Positions 2,177 through 64,000 of a stretch of DNA of 64,000 nucleotides are shown here, one piece after another (within the stretch, counting starts at the first letter, position 1; every line of letters starts with the position of its first letter). Source of the DNA: a virus (lineage: Duplodnaviria; Caudoviricetes); the IMG/VR virus record IMGVR_UViG_3300013121_000054, positions 1 through 64,000 of that record; one strand, given 5' to 3'. Made by a program: the position numbers and the translations under genes. The notes under the pieces were generated by a model. The model saw only the letters and a list, made by a program, of their open reading frames with translations, made no database searches and had not been told where the DNA came from.

Positions 2177-4023
2177 CCCAGGAATTATCAACAGCAGAGC
2201 GCGCGGCGATCGCCATGCGCGAGGTCTTTGGCGAGACTGCGGAGCTCAAATACAGCTTTTCGTATGACTGCCCCGAGGATCTTGAGGGGCTGGAGCGCGA
2301 GAAAGAAAAGCTCGACAAGGCGCTGGAGGCAAAAGCGATCCTTGAGCCGGTGGCAGTGGCTGCGATCAAAGCGCGTCACCGCCTGGTGATCGACAAGATC
2401 GCGGTGCTTCAGTCGCCAGCCTTCAGCAAGAAGCCGCCAAAATCTCAGGAGCGCGAGCGCTATGATGCGCTCCTGGCTCGGATTAAGCCACTCGATCTTG
2501 AGACCGAATGGCTCGATCGGGAACTGGAGCGCCTTGCTATTCCGATCGGCACCCTTGCTGGTCTTACGCAGGAGAAAGCCGACGAAATCGGAACAGCAAT
2601 CGCAGCTTTCGAGGCTGCGTGGCCGAAGAAAGATGAGGCAAAAGACGGATCGCGCCGAGGCCGCAGGAATGCCGGTGCCAAGAAGGATAAGAAGGAAGAG
2701 CCCCCAAAGCAAGAAAGTGTCGCTGCGACACCTGGCACTTCAGAAGCGGCTGCGGCTGCTGCCTCTCCTGCTGCATCAGATGTACTCACTAAAGATGAAT
2801 CTGATGTCGCCTGGGCAGCCTACAATTTCTTGCGGGATCAAGACCTTGAGCCGCCCGCCGAGTTTGAGCAAAGACTTTTGGCCGGTGCAGCCACATCGAA
2901 TGATTTCGATGCGCTGACTTCGGCCGCTATGGATATGGGCTGGGTGCCGGAACTGGCAAGCGCTCCTGCTGAAACAGAGACAGCAGAAGCCGAGCCGGTC
3001 TCTGAAATCCCGTTCATTGCGGAGAGTAGTGGAACCGTGAAACCCGAGGAGGTGAGCGATCTTCAGCAAAAGATAGAAACACCGGAAACAAATAGGGATT
3101 TGGAAACCAAGGAATCTAATGATGTTACTTCAGCGGAGCCTGGCTTGAGTGCTACCGCGGGCGAGGGTGGAAATCATGTAGATGCGGAGGCGCTGCCGGC
3201 AGAGTCGAATCAAAAAAATATCGCGAATTCTCACCAAGACTCTGCCGGTCAGCCAGTCCAACTACCCGCAGCCCAGGTGCAAGAGACAGAGCAATATCTC
3301 GAAAAAGAAGACGGCACATGGGTGAATCTGAAAGATGGCACGGTGCTCACCGAGGAGCAGATCGAGAAAGCGAAGCTCGACAAGAAGCTGACCGACGCCG
3401 AGGTCTTCCTCTTCGTGGATTCGCTTGAGGTCTCTGCTTATGAAGACGCAGTAAAAGTGCTGACTCTCATTAAAAACTGGCAGCACGATTGCGAAGATAT
3501 AGCCAAGATTGCGCGCGACCTGATTAATGCAAAACTTCGCCTGATCAATGGCTTCCTCTATCGATTCAATCGCGGTATCAGAGCCGTGTTTGAGCCGAAG
3601 CTGAAGAAAAACCAAGAAGGGGAGTATGACCCGAAAAACGTCAAGGTGCTCGATGCTGGCGTGAAGTTGTTCTGGACAACCACAGGCGGTGTCAAGTGTG
3701 TTGATCGCAAGGGTCTCAATGGCTTCATGGCGACCTGCTCGGATGCTGTCTTTGAGGGTCTCGGCGGCACTTACGGCAAGCCGCAGAGGGTCTGGGAATA
3801 TGAGAAGATCGTCAAGCTTTACGAGGCGGGCGAGGAGAGCTTGCAGCGCTTCTTCACGAAGTCGGATGTGAATGAACTAGGTTTGATGCGCGTAGGGGTG
3901 GACCGCTCCCCTTGGACGCCTGCGCGAATCGGGAAGGAATTTAAGATCGCAAAAAATCTGCCAATGCTGACCACATCAGCAGAAAGCGAGCAAGAGGAAA
4001 GCACCAGCGGCACTGCCGCATAG
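2173..4023 (+). CDS. 616-aa protein: coiled-coil N-terminus, acidic low-complexity middle, possible Gam/Gp157-like C-terminal domain
   Basis: long coupled ORF after bet; the C-terminal helical hairpin plus KNVKVLDAGVKLFWTTT loosely resembles Mu-Gam-like proteins (weak). Confidence 0.45.
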   Translation: MTQELSTAERAAIAMREVFGETAELKYSFSYDCPEDLEGLEREKEKLDKALEAKAILEPVAVAAIKARHRLVIDKIAVLQSPAFSKKPPKSQERERYDALLARIKPLDLETEWLDRELERLAIPIGTLAGLTQEKADEIGTAIAAFEAAWPKKDEAKDGSRRGRRNAGAKKDKKEEPPKQESVAATPGTSEAAAAAASPAASDVLTKDESDVAWAAYNFLRDQDLEPPAEFEQRLLAGAATSNDFDALTSAAMDMGWVPELASAPAETETAEAEPVSEIPFIAESSGTVKPEEVSDLQQKIETPETNRDLETKESNDVTSAEPGLSATAGEGGNHVDAEALPAESNQKNIANSHQDSAGQPVQLPAAQVQETEQYLEKEDGTWVNLKDGTVLTEEQIEKAKLDKKLTDAEVFLFVDSLEVSAYEDAVKVLTLIKNWQHDCEDIAKIARDLINAKLRLINGFLYRFNRGIRAVFEPKLKKNQEGEYDPKNVKVLDAGVKLFWTTTGGVKCVDRKGLNGFMATCSDAVFEGLGGTYGKPQRVWEYEKIVKLYEAGEESLQRFFTKSDVNELGLMRVGVDRSPWTPARIGKEFKIAKNLPMLTTSAESEQEESTSGTAA

Positions 4024-4038
4024 CTGAAAGGATCGAAA

Positions 4039-4470
4039 ATGAGAATAATACCAGCCATGGTGGCTGCATTGATTTGCAGCCAGGCGGCAGTGTGCGCCGA
4101 AGATCAGCCGCAAGCAAAGCCGCCCGGCTTCTGGAGTCGGCACGAGAAGCTCAAAACCCTTCGCGATTGGAGCACCGCGCCAGCACGCGCGGTGTGGAAT
4201 TCGCACACAGTTACCACCCTTCGCGATACACCGGCAGGCAAGAAAATCTGCGCGGCCTCAAAGGCATCAGCTCAGAAGACGTGGCAAATCACCAAGCAAG
4301 GCGCCCATGTCGCCAATGTCGCAGCTCTCAAAGCTAGTGACGTTGGTTACAAATACGGTGGCATTGCGCAGCTCGGGATCATGGCAAGCACTGGCATTAC
4401 AGCCATCCGAAACAAAAACAACAACAAAAACCAAACAATAATCATGGCTCCGATACCGAGCCAGAAGTGA
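4039..4470 (+). CDS. secreted hypothetical protein
   Basis: MRIIPAMVAALICSQAAVCA signal-peptide pattern. Confidence 0.65.
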   Translation: MRIIPAMVAALICSQAAVCAEDQPQAKPPGFWSRHEKLKTLRDWSTAPARAVWNSHTVTTLRDTPAGKKICAASKASAQKTWQITKQGAHVANVAALKASDVGYKYGGIAQLGIMASTGITAIRNKNNNKNQTIIMAPIPSQK

Positions 4471-4477
4471 GGCGGAA

Positions 4478-4783
4478 ATGAGTAAGCAAATGCTCGGAGC
4501 CGGTCTGATTAGGCGCGGTCAGATCACCTTCAAAGGACCGGCAGCAGAAGCGGTAGTGTCAGAGGTTGATGCGCTTATGCGTCGCATCCAGATCTTGAAT
4601 GACGCTCGCCTTAAAGCTCTGCGTTATGCGGAGGATTTCGACTCCGCACTCAAGGCGACCTACGCCTTTCTGAATAATGTCGAGCACGCAGAGACGCGCG
4701 ATCAGTTGCGCTGGCTGCTCGATCTCAACGTGTCGCGCAACAGAGATCTGAAAGAGGCTCTAAAGGTCACGGTGGGCGAGTAA
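4478..4783 (+). CDS. hypothetical protein
   Basis: 101-aa ORF, TAATG-coupled to the next gene. Confidence 0.6.
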   Translation: MSKQMLGAGLIRRGQITFKGPAAEAVVSEVDALMRRIQILNDARLKALRYAEDFDSALKATYAFLNNVEHAETRDQLRWLLDLNVSRNRDLKEALKVTVGE

Positions 4784-5313
4784 TGCACGATTATCCCATC
4801 GCCAAGGGCTCGCACTTGCACCGACTGCTAACGCAGGAGGATGTGAAGCTCGGGCTAGGCATCAAGCCGATTATCTTCCAGTTCAGAATTCGCCCGGTGC
4901 CATTCAAGCGCGTGGTGCCGAAAGTTGGAAAGCCGTATAACCCCAGGGAGTATCGCGAATACAAAGAGCTGATTCAGAAGTCAGCCCTTCAGCAATACAG
5001 CGGCCCCACGCTGAGAACCACACTCAGGGTCGATTGCTTCTTCTTTTTCGATTCCGGGCACCATGGCGATCGAGATAACCTCGGGAAAGCCATCGAGGAT
5101 GCGCTGCAATACGACAACGACAAGGATCACTACTTTCGAGGCATCTATCACAACGATAAAAGCAACCTCGCGGGCAGTCAGGAAATTTTCTATAAATCCG
5201 AGCACGGCGATGACTGGCCTGGATTTGAGGGCAGCCTCGTGATTATCACGCGCCGAAATCCCTACAGCCCGCTCGGAACCCCACTATTAGAGCAACTAAT
5301 GCCAAGGAGTTGA
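4783..5313 (+). CDS. rusA: RusA-family Holliday junction resolvase
   Basis: P.PFKR...Y..YK..I and GDRDNLGKAIEDAL motif; replication-module context. Confidence 0.75.
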   Translation: MHDYPIAKGSHLHRLLTQEDVKLGLGIKPIIFQFRIRPVPFKRVVPKVGKPYNPREYREYKELIQKSALQQYSGPTLRTTLRVDCFFFFDSGHHGDRDNLGKAIEDALQYDNDKDHYFRGIYHNDKSNLAGSQEIFYKSEHGDDWPGFEGSLVIITRRNPYSPLGTPLLEQLMPRS

Positions 5314-5316
5314 GAG

Positions 5317-5745
5317 ATGTACTTAGAAAAAATCAAAAAGGGACAAGAAGAGCGAGACGGTTATGTCAAAGCGATTCAAATGCTGATTCCGCCGCATCCT
5401 TCCGACTATGACGCAATTTACGAGCACAAGAAGGAAGTGCAGCGCCTGAGCGATCTACACCACGCTACGTGCTTTGGGATCGAGCACCAGGTGCATGTTT
5501 TGCTGCAAGCGCTCTATAGCGCCTGCGGTGAAGATTGGAACGTCACCGCCGATGTGGTCGAAGAGGCATATCGCGGTAATTCTGAGCCAGCCTGGCTTGC
5601 TGCGCGCCTGGCTCAAATCGAAGAAGCAAAAGAAGCCGCAGCGAAAAAGAGGAGCCGCAAAGAGATCCCTGGTCAGATAGATCTTCGCGACGAACTGGCA
5701 AATCAGCAAATGAATGAGGAGGGCCGCGATGAAGCCACCGTGTAA
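5317..5745 (+). CDS. hypothetical protein
   Basis: GGAG RBS; 142-aa helical ORF. Confidence 0.6.
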   Translation: MYLEKIKKGQEERDGYVKAIQMLIPPHPSDYDAIYEHKKEVQRLSDLHHATCFGIEHQVHVLLQALYSACGEDWNVTADVVEEAYRGNSEPAWLAARLAQIEEAKEAAAKKRSRKEIPGQIDLRDELANQQMNEEGRDEATV

Positions 5746-6058
5746 AGCACCTGAAGGTTACCTGCCCGCCGCCGACTATGCGCGGCTGCACAACATCCAC
5801 CCATCGACCTTGCTTGGCTACTGCGCGACGGGCCGCCTAGAGCATTTGCGAATTCGTAAGTGGCACTTTATACCCGAGAACGCAAAAGTACAGCCCACGC
5901 GCAAATCAATACCGGATGGTTGCCTCACAACCACAGAATACTGCGCACGCCATGGCATGAGCCTCAGCAGAGTGAAAGCAATGCTGAAAGCTGGGCTGAT
6001 TGAGGGCGCACGGTGGACCGGTCAACAATGGCTACTGCCAGAAGAGGTGACATGCTGA
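5729..6058 (+). CDS. tandem HTH (MerR/excisionase-like) DNA-binding protein
   Basis: two repeats, YLPAADYARLHNIHPSTLLGYCATGRL and CLTTTEYCARHGMSLSRVKAMLKAGLI...GQQWLLP. Confidence 0.7.
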   Translation: MKPPCKAPEGYLPAADYARLHNIHPSTLLGYCATGRLEHLRIRKWHFIPENAKVQPTRKSIPDGCLTTTEYCARHGMSLSRVKAMLKAGLIEGARWTGQQWLLPEEVTC

Positions 6059-61760: not shown

Positions 61761-62057
61761 ATGAACATCAATGTACCCGAGTCAGCAAGAGACCACTTCT
61801 GGCAGGAGCCACCGCCCGGGCATCGAGAATTCTGGAGCTTCAGCCGCTTCAAGCCGCCCTGCGCTGTCGGCGATGTGCTGATATTTCGCTTCGATGGCGA
61901 GGCAGTGGCGCGAGCGATCTGCTCGGAAATCGAGCCACCTGGGCAGTCAAAGTGTGCCAGCACTGGGCGCTTTGAGCGTGGCTGGAAAGTGTATTGGGAG
62001 CCGGAAACCTTTGAGGATCTGCGCGGCTCTATGAGACAAACCCTAAGATCGCCATGA
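61761..62057 (+). CDS. ASCH/PUA-like small protein
   Basis: HFW.EPP...EFW...KPPCAVGDVLIFRFDG. Confidence 0.5.
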   Translation: MNINVPESARDHFWQEPPPGHREFWSFSRFKPPCAVGDVLIFRFDGEAVARAICSEIEPPGQSKCASTGRFERGWKVYWEPETFEDLRGSMRQTLRSP

Positions 62058-62108: not shown

Positions 62109-62405
62109 ATGCTTACGCCTGATGAGGCTAAGGGCGTGCCGCGCCCACAGCGCGAGCAGAAGCCCAAGGAAGATGAAACAAATTGGGAGCAGGAGCGCGA
62201 CGCGATGATCGAGCGCGTGAATAAGTTTCTGCGCGATGGTAATTACAGAGGCCGCCCCTTCCAGCTCGAAATCGGCAAGGGCTGCCAGAAAGCTCGCAAG
62301 GGCTTTGTCCAGCACCTTGAAGCTCACGGCTGGCGGGCTGATGAAAAGATGTTCTTTGATCGCGGCACCGAGAACTGGGTCGCGCGCATCAAGCAGGCTT
62401 TCTGA
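62109..62405 (+). CDS. hypothetical protein
   Basis: GAGG RBS; coupled to the next gene. Confidence 0.6.
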   Translation: MLTPDEAKGVPRPQREQKPKEDETNWEQERDAMIERVNKFLRDGNYRGRPFQLEIGKGCQKARKGFVQHLEAHGWRADEKMFFDRGTENWVARIKQAF

Positions 62406-62683
62406 TGAAAGTCGCACTGCATGAGCTAAAGACCGAGCAGCCTTGGTTTAGCGAAATAGCGCGCGGTATCAAGGATTTCGAGGTGCGTGAGCACGATCGG
62501 ATCTTTGAGGTCGGCGACCTGCTGAATCTGCGCGAATACGACAAAAACTATAAGTGCTATAGCGGAAGACACATTCTGGCGCGCATCAAGAAGGTGATGA
62601 GCCATGAAGAATTCCCGCTGGCAATCCGTAAAGGTTACTGCATTCTCGGCATCGAGAGGCTCTCACAAACTATCCAAACATAA
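62405..62683 (+). CDS. ASCH/PUA-domain protein (DUF3850-like)
   Basis: HELKTEQPWFSEIARGIKDFEVREHDRIFEVGDLLNLREY. Confidence 0.85.
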   Translation: MKVALHELKTEQPWFSEIARGIKDFEVREHDRIFEVGDLLNLREYDKNYKCYSGRHILARIKKVMSHEEFPLAIRKGYCILGIERLSQTIQT

Positions 62684-62698
62684 GGAGAATCATAGACT

Positions 62699-63439
62699 AT
62701 GGGGAAAATCTTGAGTCAGGTACTGGCTCTTCAGCAAGGCCGCAAAGAAAGCATCGACAAAGAAATCAGCCAGCTCGCAACAGCATCCACAAAACTTGAT
62801 CAGCTCACTGGCTTTGTGAATCAGTACCAAGCCTTGAATGAGGAAGATCACGAGCAGTTCAGCGATGAGGCCAAGAAGGTGCAAGCAATAGCGCCAGATA
62901 TCCTTTCGCGCTTGTCGCAGCTTATTGCCGAAGAGGTGGACATCGAAGCCACCAAGGACAATACCAACTGCTTCGCCCGGGCTGATATTATCCTTTCCGG
63001 CATAGTGTGGGCAAAAGATGTGCCAGTCACTACTCTGCTCTACCTCGAAAAACGTCTGACCGCTTGGCGGGCGATCATATCGAAGATACCCATGCTTGAC
63101 GCATCGGAGAACTGGACCCCAGACACCACTCAGCAAGGGCTGTGGAGGAGTGAAACGCGCAAGACCCACAGAACCAAGAAGGTGCCGAAGCCGATCACAC
63201 TGGCGCCTGCTACTACGGAATTCCCCGCCCAGGTGCAAATGATCGCAGAAGACCAGGTAGTCGGCTACTATCACAAAGTGATTCTTTCTGGCGCACTGCC
63301 GGCCACTCGCTGGGCGCAGCTCATGCAGCAAGCAAACCAATTGATCGATGCTGTGCGAATGGCGAGAGAGCAAGCAAATACTGTTCCTGCACAAGATCTA
63401 AAGATCGGACAAGCGATCTTTGATTACCTGATGCAGTAG
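62699..63439 (+). CDS. 246-aa helical-hairpin/beta-insert protein of unknown function, directly upstream of the structured RNA
   Basis: AAGGAG RBS; TKDNTNCFARAD, VPVTTLLYLEKRL, HRTKKVPKPITLAPATTEFPAQV, SGALPA, AVRMAREQAN. Confidence 0.85.
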   Translation: MGKILSQVLALQQGRKESIDKEISQLATASTKLDQLTGFVNQYQALNEEDHEQFSDEAKKVQAIAPDILSRLSQLIAEEVDIEATKDNTNCFARADIILSGIVWAKDVPVTTLLYLEKRLTAWRAIISKIPMLDASENWTPDTTQQGLWRSETRKTHRTKKVPKPITLAPATTEFPAQVQMIAEDQVVGYYHKVILSGALPATRWAQLMQQANQLIDAVRMAREQANTVPAQDLKIGQAIFDYLMQ

Positions 63440-63491
63440 AATGACAAAGCTGTGAGGCGAAGCTAAAGCTCAATTTCAAGTTAAGCTCGCA

Positions 63492-63564
63492 GAGAGGAGA
63501 GGAAGGTTCGATTCCTTCCTCGGGCACCATAAGCCCGAGTAGCCCAGATGGTAGAGGCACTCTC
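63492..63564 (+). ncRNA. circularly permuted tRNA-like module 1
   Basis: AC3' GAGAG, var GAGAG, T-arm GAAGG/TTCGATT/CCTTC, CTCGGGC-A-CCA-TAA-GCCCGAG, TA, D-arm GCCCAGATGGTAGAGGC, AC5' CTCTC. Confidence 0.85.
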
Positions 63565-63640
63565 GGCGAAAGAAAGTTAAGTCTATCCTCACAAGTTGAT
63601 GCCTGGAACCAGTTGCGAAAATCCAGCAGCGGCAAAAATC

Positions 63641-63709
63641 TAGTTTATATGTCAGTTCAAGTCTGACCGTGGGTGCCAGCCCGCGTAGCTCAATGGCAGA
63701 GCGAAACTA
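63641..63709 (+). ncRNA. circularly permuted tRNA-like module 2
   Basis: AC3' TAGTTT, var ATAT, T-arm GTCAG/TTCAAGT/CTGAC, CGTGGGT-G-CCA-GCCCGCG, TA, D-arm GCTC/AATGGCA/GAGC, AC5' AAACTA. Confidence 0.85.
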
Positions 63710-63765
63710 TTCAATCTGAAACGTCGCACTAAAATCGCTGAGAAGATTCGTTAATGAGCAGAGCA

Positions 63766-63837
63766 CTGCATGTAGCTCAAGAGTAGAGCAACAGTCACGT
63801 AAACTGTAGAGTGCGGGTGCGATTCCCGTCTTGCAAA
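63766..63837 (+). tRNA. degenerate tRNA-like element, Thr(CGT) anticodon if read canonically
   Basis: full cloverleaf in normal order, but A33, no D-loop GG, T-loop TGCGATT, two acceptor mismatches and no encoded CCA. Confidence 0.55.
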
Positions 63838-63845
63838 TAAACCGC

Positions 63846-63881
63846 GCGCTCGCAGGAGGCTACCCTGCGGGCGTTGCTTTT
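63846..63881 (+). terminator. intrinsic terminator closing the RNA
   Basis: GCGCTCGCAGG-7nt-CCTGCGGGCGT-TGCTTTT. Confidence 0.7.
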
Positions 63882-63888
63882 CGAGTCA

Positions 63889-63918
63889 TTGACATAACCG
63901 CAAATTTGCGGTTATAGT
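63889..63918 (+). promoter_or_regulatory. sigma70 promoter with a perfect 22-bp palindrome in the spacer
   Basis: TTGACA 63889-94, 18 bp, TATAGT 63913-18; ATAACCGCAAATTTGCGGTTAT at 63894-63915. Confidence 0.8.
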
Positions 63919-63949: not shown

Positions 63950-64000
63950 ATGGATATCAACCTCGCCGATTACGACATCATCCTGATTAACAGCTCGGGC
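63950..64000 (+). CDS. partial CDS, probable PAPS-reductase-family (PP-loop) protein
   Basis: AAGGAG RBS; MDINLADYDIILINSSG fits the start of an SSGGKDS PP-loop; only 17 codons visible. Confidence 0.5.
   Translation, partial: MDINLADYDIILINSSG

Follow-up and report, generated by a model that had tools for sequence, protein, structure and literature searches.

The 64,000-nucleotide (nt) stretch analysed here (the window; positions 1 to 64,000 of IMG/VR record IMGVR_UViG_3300013121_000054) carries on its + strand a gene for a 246-amino acid (aa) protein of the DUF7873 family (62699-63439), followed on the same strand by an RNA of about 420 nt that is built from tRNA-like domains (63440-63881). 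The DUF7873-linked RNA is a widespread family that is absent from Rfam. On balance, we consider it probable that the gene and the RNA constitute one prophage expression unit, forming a tRNA-mimic ribonucleoprotein (RNP) that would act on tRNA-directed proteins. The window is phage DNA, with genes for the terminase large subunit, a baseplate spike, a D5-type primase-helicase and a single-stranded DNA-binding protein, and the 73-kb record to which it belongs is classed as a provirus by IMG/VR.

The RNA combines tRNA-like modules, a repeat track and a terminal hairpin

Located 3′ of the coding sequence (CDS), the RNA comprises two circularly permuted tRNA-like domains (modules A and B), a third, unpermuted cloverleaf (module C), 6-nt repeats and a terminal hairpin. 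The permuted modules were located at 63502-63558 and 63651-63702 by a scanner of our own, which looks for a T-arm, a 7-nt acceptor 3′ strand, a loop, the acceptor 5′ strand and a D-arm in this order. Taking the scanner hits together with a constrained fold and with R1, a covariance model of module B, module A was delimited to 63487-63569 (R1, 45.2 bits at 63478-63586) and module B to 63641-63709 (R1, 70.2 bits at 63627-63725). Module A is closed by a 9-bp helix (63487-63496/63560-63569) and contains a T-arm (63502-63518), an acceptor hairpin of 7 bp with the loop ACCAUAA (63519-63539), the dinucleotide UA and a D-arm (63542-63558); compensatory changes in this module were seen in 34 relatives. 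Module B has the same parts, namely a 6-bp closing helix (63641-63646/63704-63709), a T-arm (63651-63667), a 7-bp acceptor hairpin capped by the tetraloop GCCA (63668-63685) and a D-arm (63688-63702). It is directly followed by an A.CUGA motif (AAUCUGA in the window, 63713-63719), whose columns were conserved in two alignments, one of them anchored.

Upstream of the two heads, a track of 6-nt repeats (63460-63489; AAGCUA AAGCUC AAUUUC AAGUUA AGCUCG), recognised by word spacing, leads into module A, and it resumes in the linker with two further repeats 3′ of this module (63574-63585). Specifically, matches to the word pattern A[AG][AGT][CT]T begin at 63460, 63466, 63472, 63478, 63483, 63574 and 63580. 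Across 166 loci, repeat words were spaced by 6 nt 340 times compared with 9.3 times in shuffled sequences, by 12 nt 182 times compared with 7.5, and by 18 nt 125 times compared with 8.8. At the other end of the RNA, beyond module C (63766-63837), an 11-bp GC-rich hairpin (63846-63874) with the loop AGGCUAC (63857-63863) is followed by a U-run, giving a terminator-like element at 63846-63881. In about 80 of the 86 non-redundant loci of the family, a 3′ hairpin of at least 12 bp with a GG(A/C/G)UA loop lies 58-135 nt past module B, often without a U-run. The apparent terminator of the window, with its loop AGGCUAC, is this conserved 3′ hairpin, and here it also looks like an intrinsic terminator. 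A partner for the GGNUA loop was sought by eye in the module A D-stem and in the AAUCGA box of the linker, and neither showed consistent covariation. A single-sequence minimum free energy fold of 63440-63845, in which long-range pairs broke module C, was not trusted.

A reading of the window made from the sequence alone (the sequence-only reading) had the RNA run from the CDS stop at 63439 to a terminator at 63846-63881, with neither promoter nor terminator between gene and RNA. This layout was confirmed, since the modules and the hairpin with its U-run were found where it had placed the RNA and a consensus scan of the + strand from the CDS start to the 63846 hairpin revealed no sigma-70-like promoter and no terminator.

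The RNA accompanies DUF7873 in phages and in bacteria

We determined how regularly the RNA accompanies the gene in a viral set, composed of the best 80 of 426 IMG/VR matches plus nine cultured phages (85 loci with enough flanking sequence), and in a bacterial set, composed of the best 80 of 383 matches in species genomes. The IMG/VR homologues were collected with a 12-sequence alignment as the query, a search with the single protein having returned no match; tblastn placed DUF7873 in 74 phage records. The nine cultured phages, which are diverse, presented an unannotated gap of 400-1100 nt 3′ of DUF7873, usually inside a tRNA gene array. Rfam gave sub-threshold matches to the Y RNA YrlA in six of these nine gaps, and our scanner found A and B modules in most of them. 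Under strict settings, a permuted module was detected within 700 nt downstream, on the strand of the gene, in 58 of the 85 loci, compared with 4 of 85 in about 2 kb of upstream sequence and 0 of 85 on the opposite strand, so that the permuted modules occur far beyond chance. A and B occur paired, and the linker between them has a median length of 99 nt.

The covariance model R1, applied at 35 bits or more to the viral loci and at E ≤1e-7 to the bacterial ones, placed the RNA just downstream of DUF7873 and on its strand in about 83 of the 85 viral loci and in 76 of the 80 bacterial species genomes. At scores of up to about 57 bits, R1 also picks up junctions between neighbouring tRNA genes and what are probably genuine YrlA or tandem Y RNAs; matches were counted only if they adjoined DUF7873 or scored above this level. 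The bacterial carriers belong to at least five phyla (Myxococcota, Acidobacteriota, Abditibacteriota, Planctomycetota, Actinomycetota and others), and in bacteria the gene-RNA unit is chromosomal and lies outside tRNA arrays. Among 101 evenly sampled Streptosporangiales genomes, 19 encoded a full-length DUF7873 protein, each with the RNA adjacent (19/19), and none of the DUF7873-negative genomes exceeded 51 bits with R1; the sample includes one unpublished DUF7873-negative genome (G006), on which no claim rests. Every R1 match of at least 50 bits in five complete phage genomes (1 Mb in total) was an A/B pair after DUF7873. All nine cultured phages, whose proteins are 29-39% identical, carry the RNA, displaced in one of them by an inserted HEARO/IscB element. 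The distance to the gene can be very short, module A beginning in relatives as little as 35 nt past the stop codon. When all flanking open reading frames (ORFs) were clustered, only DUF7873 itself and frames overlapping either DUF7873 or the RNA were recovered, and no other protein neighbour was conserved.

Altogether, these results lend strong support to the sequence-only reading in its proposal of a unit made up of a protein gene plus a tRNA-mimic RNA. That reading had named homologues generally lacking the downstream RNA as the observation that would speak against it, and this objection fails because the RNA follows DUF7873 in nearly every viral, bacterial and Streptosporangiales locus tested. 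Its statement on where homologues occur held for Actinomycetota and for many phages, cyanophages included, while cyanobacterial chromosomes were not among the best 80 of 383 bacterial loci.

Pairing is conserved in the heads, which show marks of tRNA-processing substrates

RNAalifold recovered the T-arm, the 7-bp acceptor hairpin and the D-arm from the seed alignments, with many compensatory changes. Because the seeds had been picked by a scanner that itself uses pairing, we recounted the pairing on independent sequences. In 41 bacterial sequences that had stayed outside model building, 98.2% of the cells paired, compared with 66.8% after shuffling and 39-53% when the partners were slid. Double changes numbered 204 versus 65 in the same 41 sequences, and all seven acceptor pairs covaried.

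The acceptor loops were also characteristic. Among the viral loci, the loop started with NCCA in 34 of 59 A modules and in 37 of 59 B modules, versus 1 in 64 by chance. G+1 was present in about 90% of the heads and U-1 in about 75% of the B modules. Judged from their sequences, heads A and B carry what appear to be the hallmarks of a bacterial RNase P substrate, that is, a 7-bp acceptor, G+1, U-1 and an NCCA loop.

Module C is read as a third head of the RNA

Module C was called tRNA-Thr(CGU) by ARAGORN and passes the Rfam tRNA model (RF00005) with 49.7 bits versus a threshold of 29. It departs from a canonical tRNA in several features. The canonical 7-bp acceptor is not formed, with two acceptor mismatches in the Rfam alignment and five pairs conserved among nine relatives; the T-loop is UGCGAUU, with a G at the psi55 place, instead of UUCRANN; and there is no CCA. 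The module recurs at the same place in three further viral loci (L059, L030 and L090) and in five Pyrinomonadaceae genomes, and the resulting 9-sequence alignment showed compensatory change in 15 of 19 pairs. The ‘anticodon’ calls varied across a wider set of relatives (Thr, Leu, SeC, Asp, Arg, Ile and Phe). Because of the 5-bp acceptor, the UGCRA T-loop and the varying anticodon calls, we read the ‘tRNA-Thr’ at 63766-63837 as a probable third head of the RNA, though it may still be a decoding tRNA.

The UGCRA T-loop (63826-63832 in the window), with G at the psi55 place, was present in module C and in some B modules. It occurred downstream of the gene in 23 of 170 loci versus 8 matches in 346 kb of upstream control sequence. 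A loop of this kind could not be a substrate of TruB.

The DUF7873 protein

The product of 62699-63439 is a full-length DUF7873 protein (PF25283), scoring 259.4 bits against a gathering cut-off of 27 and covering positions 4-242 of the 244 in the model; a six-frame search of the record from which the window was taken gave the same result. The AlphaFold2 model, built from a 31-sequence alignment, reached a predicted local distance difference test (pLDDT) score of 95.2 and consists of four long helices plus beta elements. Among the latter, a long beta-hairpin (residues 154-193) carries the best-conserved motifs, RTKK and HPAQVQ. This model agrees with the long helices around a beta-rich insert that had been anticipated from the sequence, the hairpin covering the insert quoted at the time.

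Structure comparisons gave no functional lead. Foldseek returned no match in the PDB at E ≤0.001, and a wide VIA-align search produced generic helical-hairpin matches only (Z ≤8.1), the sole near-full-length one being 3kdq, a structure of unknown function. Nothing annotated was found in BFVD, and the ESM Atlas returned only hypothetical phage proteins, one cluster of which had DUF6847 in 14% of its members. The exact 246-aa protein was not on record in assemblies. Literature searches found no paper containing ‘DUF7873’, and those on YrlA, Y RNA or permuted tRNA in phages found nothing on the DUF7873-RNA pair.

The RNA resembles YrlA and differs from it in partner and build

YrlA (RF02553) is a bacterial Y RNA described together with Ro60/Rsr (Chen et al. 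2014, PMC4201824; Wang et al. 2018, bioRxiv 10.1101/312249). In M. smegmatis, whose YrlA is the only one tested that has a 7-bp acceptor, RNase P cuts this RNA and CCA is added to it in vivo; its two halves remain bound to Rsr (PMC4201824). Modules A and B follow the order of a YrlA-type head (T-arm, capped acceptor-like stem, D-arm and closing helix), and the window matched RF02553 at 63478-63586 (30.4 bits) and 63637-63711 (31.1 bits), without reaching the gathering score of 69. Seven relatives likewise remained below it, with 31-38 bits. The likeness extends to the setting, a non-coding RNA next to a dedicated protein gene in both bacteria and phages, to the tRNA-mimic head closed by a helix at the place of the anticodon stem and, for the M. 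smegmatis RNA, to the 7-bp acceptor stem, the trait that makes that RNA a substrate for RNase P as well as for the enzyme that adds CCA. In contrast to YrlA, the partner gene is DUF7873 and not TROVE (Ro60/Rsr), the match amounts to less than half of the gathering value, and the Ro-binding word is not conserved. Moreover, two permuted heads are held at a fixed spacing in one RNA of about 350-420 nt, with a third cloverleaf in the window, NCCA is often present in the loop, and YrlA has nothing that corresponds to the 6-nt repeat track or the GGNUA hairpin. We class the DUF7873 RNA as a tRNA mimic of the YrlA type that has several heads and another protein partner.

These differences bear on whether the RNA could be an ordinary YrlA-type Y RNA working with the Ro60/Rsr of the host, DUF7873 being a syntenic neighbour or an accessory factor. 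We regard this as quite unlikely, even though the order of T-arm, capped acceptor and D-arm is that of YrlA and YrlA gave the only Rfam matches for the heads. Scores of 30-38 bits fall well below 69, and the strict adjacency of the RNA is to DUF7873. No TROVE gene was found in the 73-kb provirus record or in the five complete phage genomes. Of five bacterial carriers, one lacked it, three had it at a distance and one had it about 6 kb away; its presence in four of the five, in one case nearby, favours a Y RNA, yet elsewhere the two are unlinked. The Ro-binding word GNCGAAN0-1G occurs twice in the window (63456 and 63565), which would also suit a Y RNA, but across 166 loci it was present in 39 versus 34.5 after shuffling, with neither enrichment nor a preferred position.

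Other explanations and points against the proposed unit

Two further explanations would dispense with a particle. The tRNA-like elements could be cis parts of the DUF7873 mRNA, either RNase P-cut punctuation of its 3′ untranslated region or 3′-end stabilisers, with no function in trans. The shared strand, the very short gap, the lack of a promoter between gene and RNA and the RNase P substrate hallmarks of the heads would all suit such a role, for which tRNA-like 3′ processing signals in other systems (MALAT1/mascRNA and phage tRNA-mRNA co-transcripts) offer parallels. For this purpose, however, one head would do, yet two or three are kept at the fixed spacing set by the linker, and the repeat track and the terminal hairpin with its conserved loop are kept in phyla whose proteins share only 30-45% identity. 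The RNA is also found on the opposite strand in two bacterial loci and has been retained behind an inserted element in the Microcoleus phage described below. A purely cis role thus seems unlikely.

Alternatively, the modules could be unusual tRNA genes (permuted, split or decayed members of an array) that mature to decoding tRNAs, or a two-piece tagging RNA resembling transfer-messenger RNA (tmRNA). In many phages the pair shares its genomic setting with tRNA gene arrays, lying inside them; NCCA is encoded; and module C passes the Rfam tRNA threshold, with a tRNA-Thr call in the window, L059 and L030. Against decoding tRNAs, modules A and B lack an anticodon arm and their covariation is in the hairpin pairing within each module, module C is non-canonical in its 5-bp conserved acceptor, in the G at the psi55 place and in its inconsistent anticodons, and the bacterial units stand in chromosomes away from any array. 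The likeness to the two-piece tmRNA that works with SmpB lies in the permuted order, with the T-arm, the acceptor 3′ strand and CCA before the acceptor 5′ strand, in an intervening loop expected to be excised by tRNA-processing enzymes, and in a dedicated small protein partner; there are also weak matches to the permuted beta-proteobacterial tmRNA model. Unlike that RNA, the present one has two heads and not one, its partner is not SmpB, and no tmRNA call, G3-U70, pseudoknot series or, although no test was aimed at it, tag frame was recognised. ARAGORN called no tmRNA in the window and no Rfam tmRNA model matched there; the beta_tmRNA model reached 20-25 bits versus 84 in two relatives, and the acceptor stems of both heads have C3-G70, not the G3-U70 needed for alanine charging. 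We also tried by hand to join the 5′ acceptor strand of module A and the 3′ strand of module B into one long tRNA- or tmRNA-like structure. This candidate was rejected, as six of seven positions pair in the window but not in relatives; since the two strands do not generally pair, no long tRNA can form. Taken together, tRNA genes or a tmRNA-like RNA are a very improbable explanation.

Several observations weigh against the proposed unit of DUF7873 and its RNA. The viral and bacterial sets, being the best-scoring matches, lean to closer relatives. The RNA was on the other strand in 2 of the 80 bacterial loci, and none was found in two more and in one viral locus. The depositors of Klebsiella phage FBKp24 annotate a promoter between the gene and the RNA. 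The DUF7873 fold resembled no known RNA-binding fold in the searches of PDB and BFVD with Foldseek, of VIA-align and of the ESM Atlas. NCCA is much rarer in the bacterial copies (7 of 47 A modules and 20 of 47 B modules), so that an encoded CCA is not universal. Finally, four of the five bacterial carriers encode a TROVE protein elsewhere in the genome, and use of a host Ro60 is therefore conceivable.

A proposed tRNA-mimic particle

As a mechanism for the expression unit that we favour, we propose that the gene and the RNA are co-transcribed, because no promoter or terminator lies between them and module A can start as near as 35 nt past the stop codon. The DUF7873 protein, made from the same transcript, would bind the parts of the RNA that are not tRNA-like, with the repeat track or the GGNUA hairpin as its likeliest site, and form an RNP. 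The tRNA enzymes of the host would treat heads A and B as pre-tRNAs, with RNase P cutting before G+1 in the acceptor loop and leaving the encoded NCCA as a 3′ end. The cuts would be expected at 63532/63533 and 63678/63679 and would expose CCA ends on a scaffold that base-pairing holds together. Both loops are expected to open because the M. smegmatis YrlA, with its 7-bp acceptor, is cut by RNase P and CCA-tailed (PMC4201824).

Such a particle would present anticodon-less ‘top halves’ of tRNA to proteins that read the elbow and the acceptor end of tRNAs, acting as a tether or a decoy, and the lack of anticodon arms would make the heads immune to anticodon-loop nucleases. In phages, where the pair lies inside tRNA arrays, it could keep tRNA supply and translation going during infection. 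We infer both the RNA-protein particle and its putative role in translation or counter-defence.

A possible analogy for the binding mode, and for nothing else, is TRAP, an oligomeric protein that reads spaced triplet repeats, one repeat per subunit. The short repeats described here have a period of about 6 nt; TRAP and DUF7873 are related neither in sequence nor in fold, and the binding of DUF7873 to the repeats is pure conjecture. Tentatively, a bolder version can be formulated, which we think possible but doubtful. The pair would represent a new, Ro60-independent class of tRNA-mimic RNP in which DUF7873 oligomerises on the repeats and RNase P nicks the heads, displaying two, and in the window possibly three, free CCA ends on one scaffold, so that the particle captures or recruits enzymes or toxins directed at the acceptor end. 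Several bacterial phyla would use it for housekeeping or under stress, and phages would have adopted it into their tRNA arrays as a means of protecting translation.

Annotations over the RNA and neighbouring sequences

In some phage records, the region of the RNA is covered by other annotations. In Klebsiella phage vB_KpM_FBKp24 (MW394391.1), the record gives a ‘tRNA-Sup-TTA’ at 4009-4088, which ARAGORN likewise calls ‘tRNA-Stop’ and which ends in the module B T-arm, acceptor 3′ strand and ACCA (4061-4088). Rather than a suppressor tRNA, this is probably a spurious call caused by the tRNA-mimic RNA. In Gordonia phage Guey18 (MW601220.1), the annotated small genes 127 and 128 (3723-4192) overlap the R1 matches to A and B (3977-4080 and 4124-4257) and probably represent ORFs called in error across the RNA. 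Gaps of 400-500 nt without annotation were present in a similar way 3′ of DUF7873 in Mimi, NiceHouse, Phendrix, phiRSL1 and RHph_TM21B. In Microcoleus phage My-WqHQDG (OR578707.1; locus L005), a HEARO RNA (129 bits) and a 425-aa ORF occupy 3944-5455, between DUF7873 and the RNA. This insertion is apparently an IS200/605-type element, and the tRNA-mimic RNA lies further on, at 5566-5909. Away from DUF7873, tandem sets of two to three R1 matches with 41-56 bits were found in three Streptosporangiales genomes (G012:C25:102493-102901, G048:C33:152921-153342 and G089:C4:296382-296922); these could represent either genuine YrlA-type Y RNAs or tRNA clusters.

Upstream of DUF7873 in the window, the sequence-only reading had pointed to two ‘ASCH/PUA-like’ ORFs as possible accessory RNA-binding parts. 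The family assignment was right for 62405-62683 (+ strand), a DUF3850/ASCH-like ORF (PF12961, 77.7 bits; phrog_986), and not for 61761-62057, which matched no family. The accessory role is unsupported, because none of the six upstream ORFs of the window, including the DUF3850/ASCH-like one, has a relative in the other 169 DUF7873 loci; the DUF3850/ASCH-like ORF is a neighbour only, outside the conserved unit. The two 98-aa ORFs at 62109-62405 and 61761-62057, which have neither Pfam nor PHROG matches nor relatives in those 169 loci, are, as far as tested, ordinary phage orphans. On the other side, 8 nt past the U-run of the RNA, a near-consensus sigma-70-type promoter (TTGACA, 18 nt, TATAGT; 11/12) at 63889-63918 opens the next unit; an ORF starts near 63951.

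Implications

The carriers of the DUF7873-RNA pair comprise hundreds of bacterial species as well as cultured phages of Arthrobacter, Gordonia, Rhodococcus, Klebsiella, Ralstonia, Rhizobium, Vibrio and cyanobacteria. If the proposal is true, it would give a function to a conserved domain family and would explain both the 400-500-nt ‘empty’ gaps and some of the probable mis-annotations in phage tRNA arrays. If the particle exists physically, it would join tmRNA-SmpB and Y RNA-Ro60 as a third tRNA-mimic RNP of bacteria, with a protein family of its own and a multi-headed RNA. It would also offer easy access to the ways in which phages and bacteria deal with enzymes or attacks directed at tRNA, several of the carrier phages and hosts being in culture.

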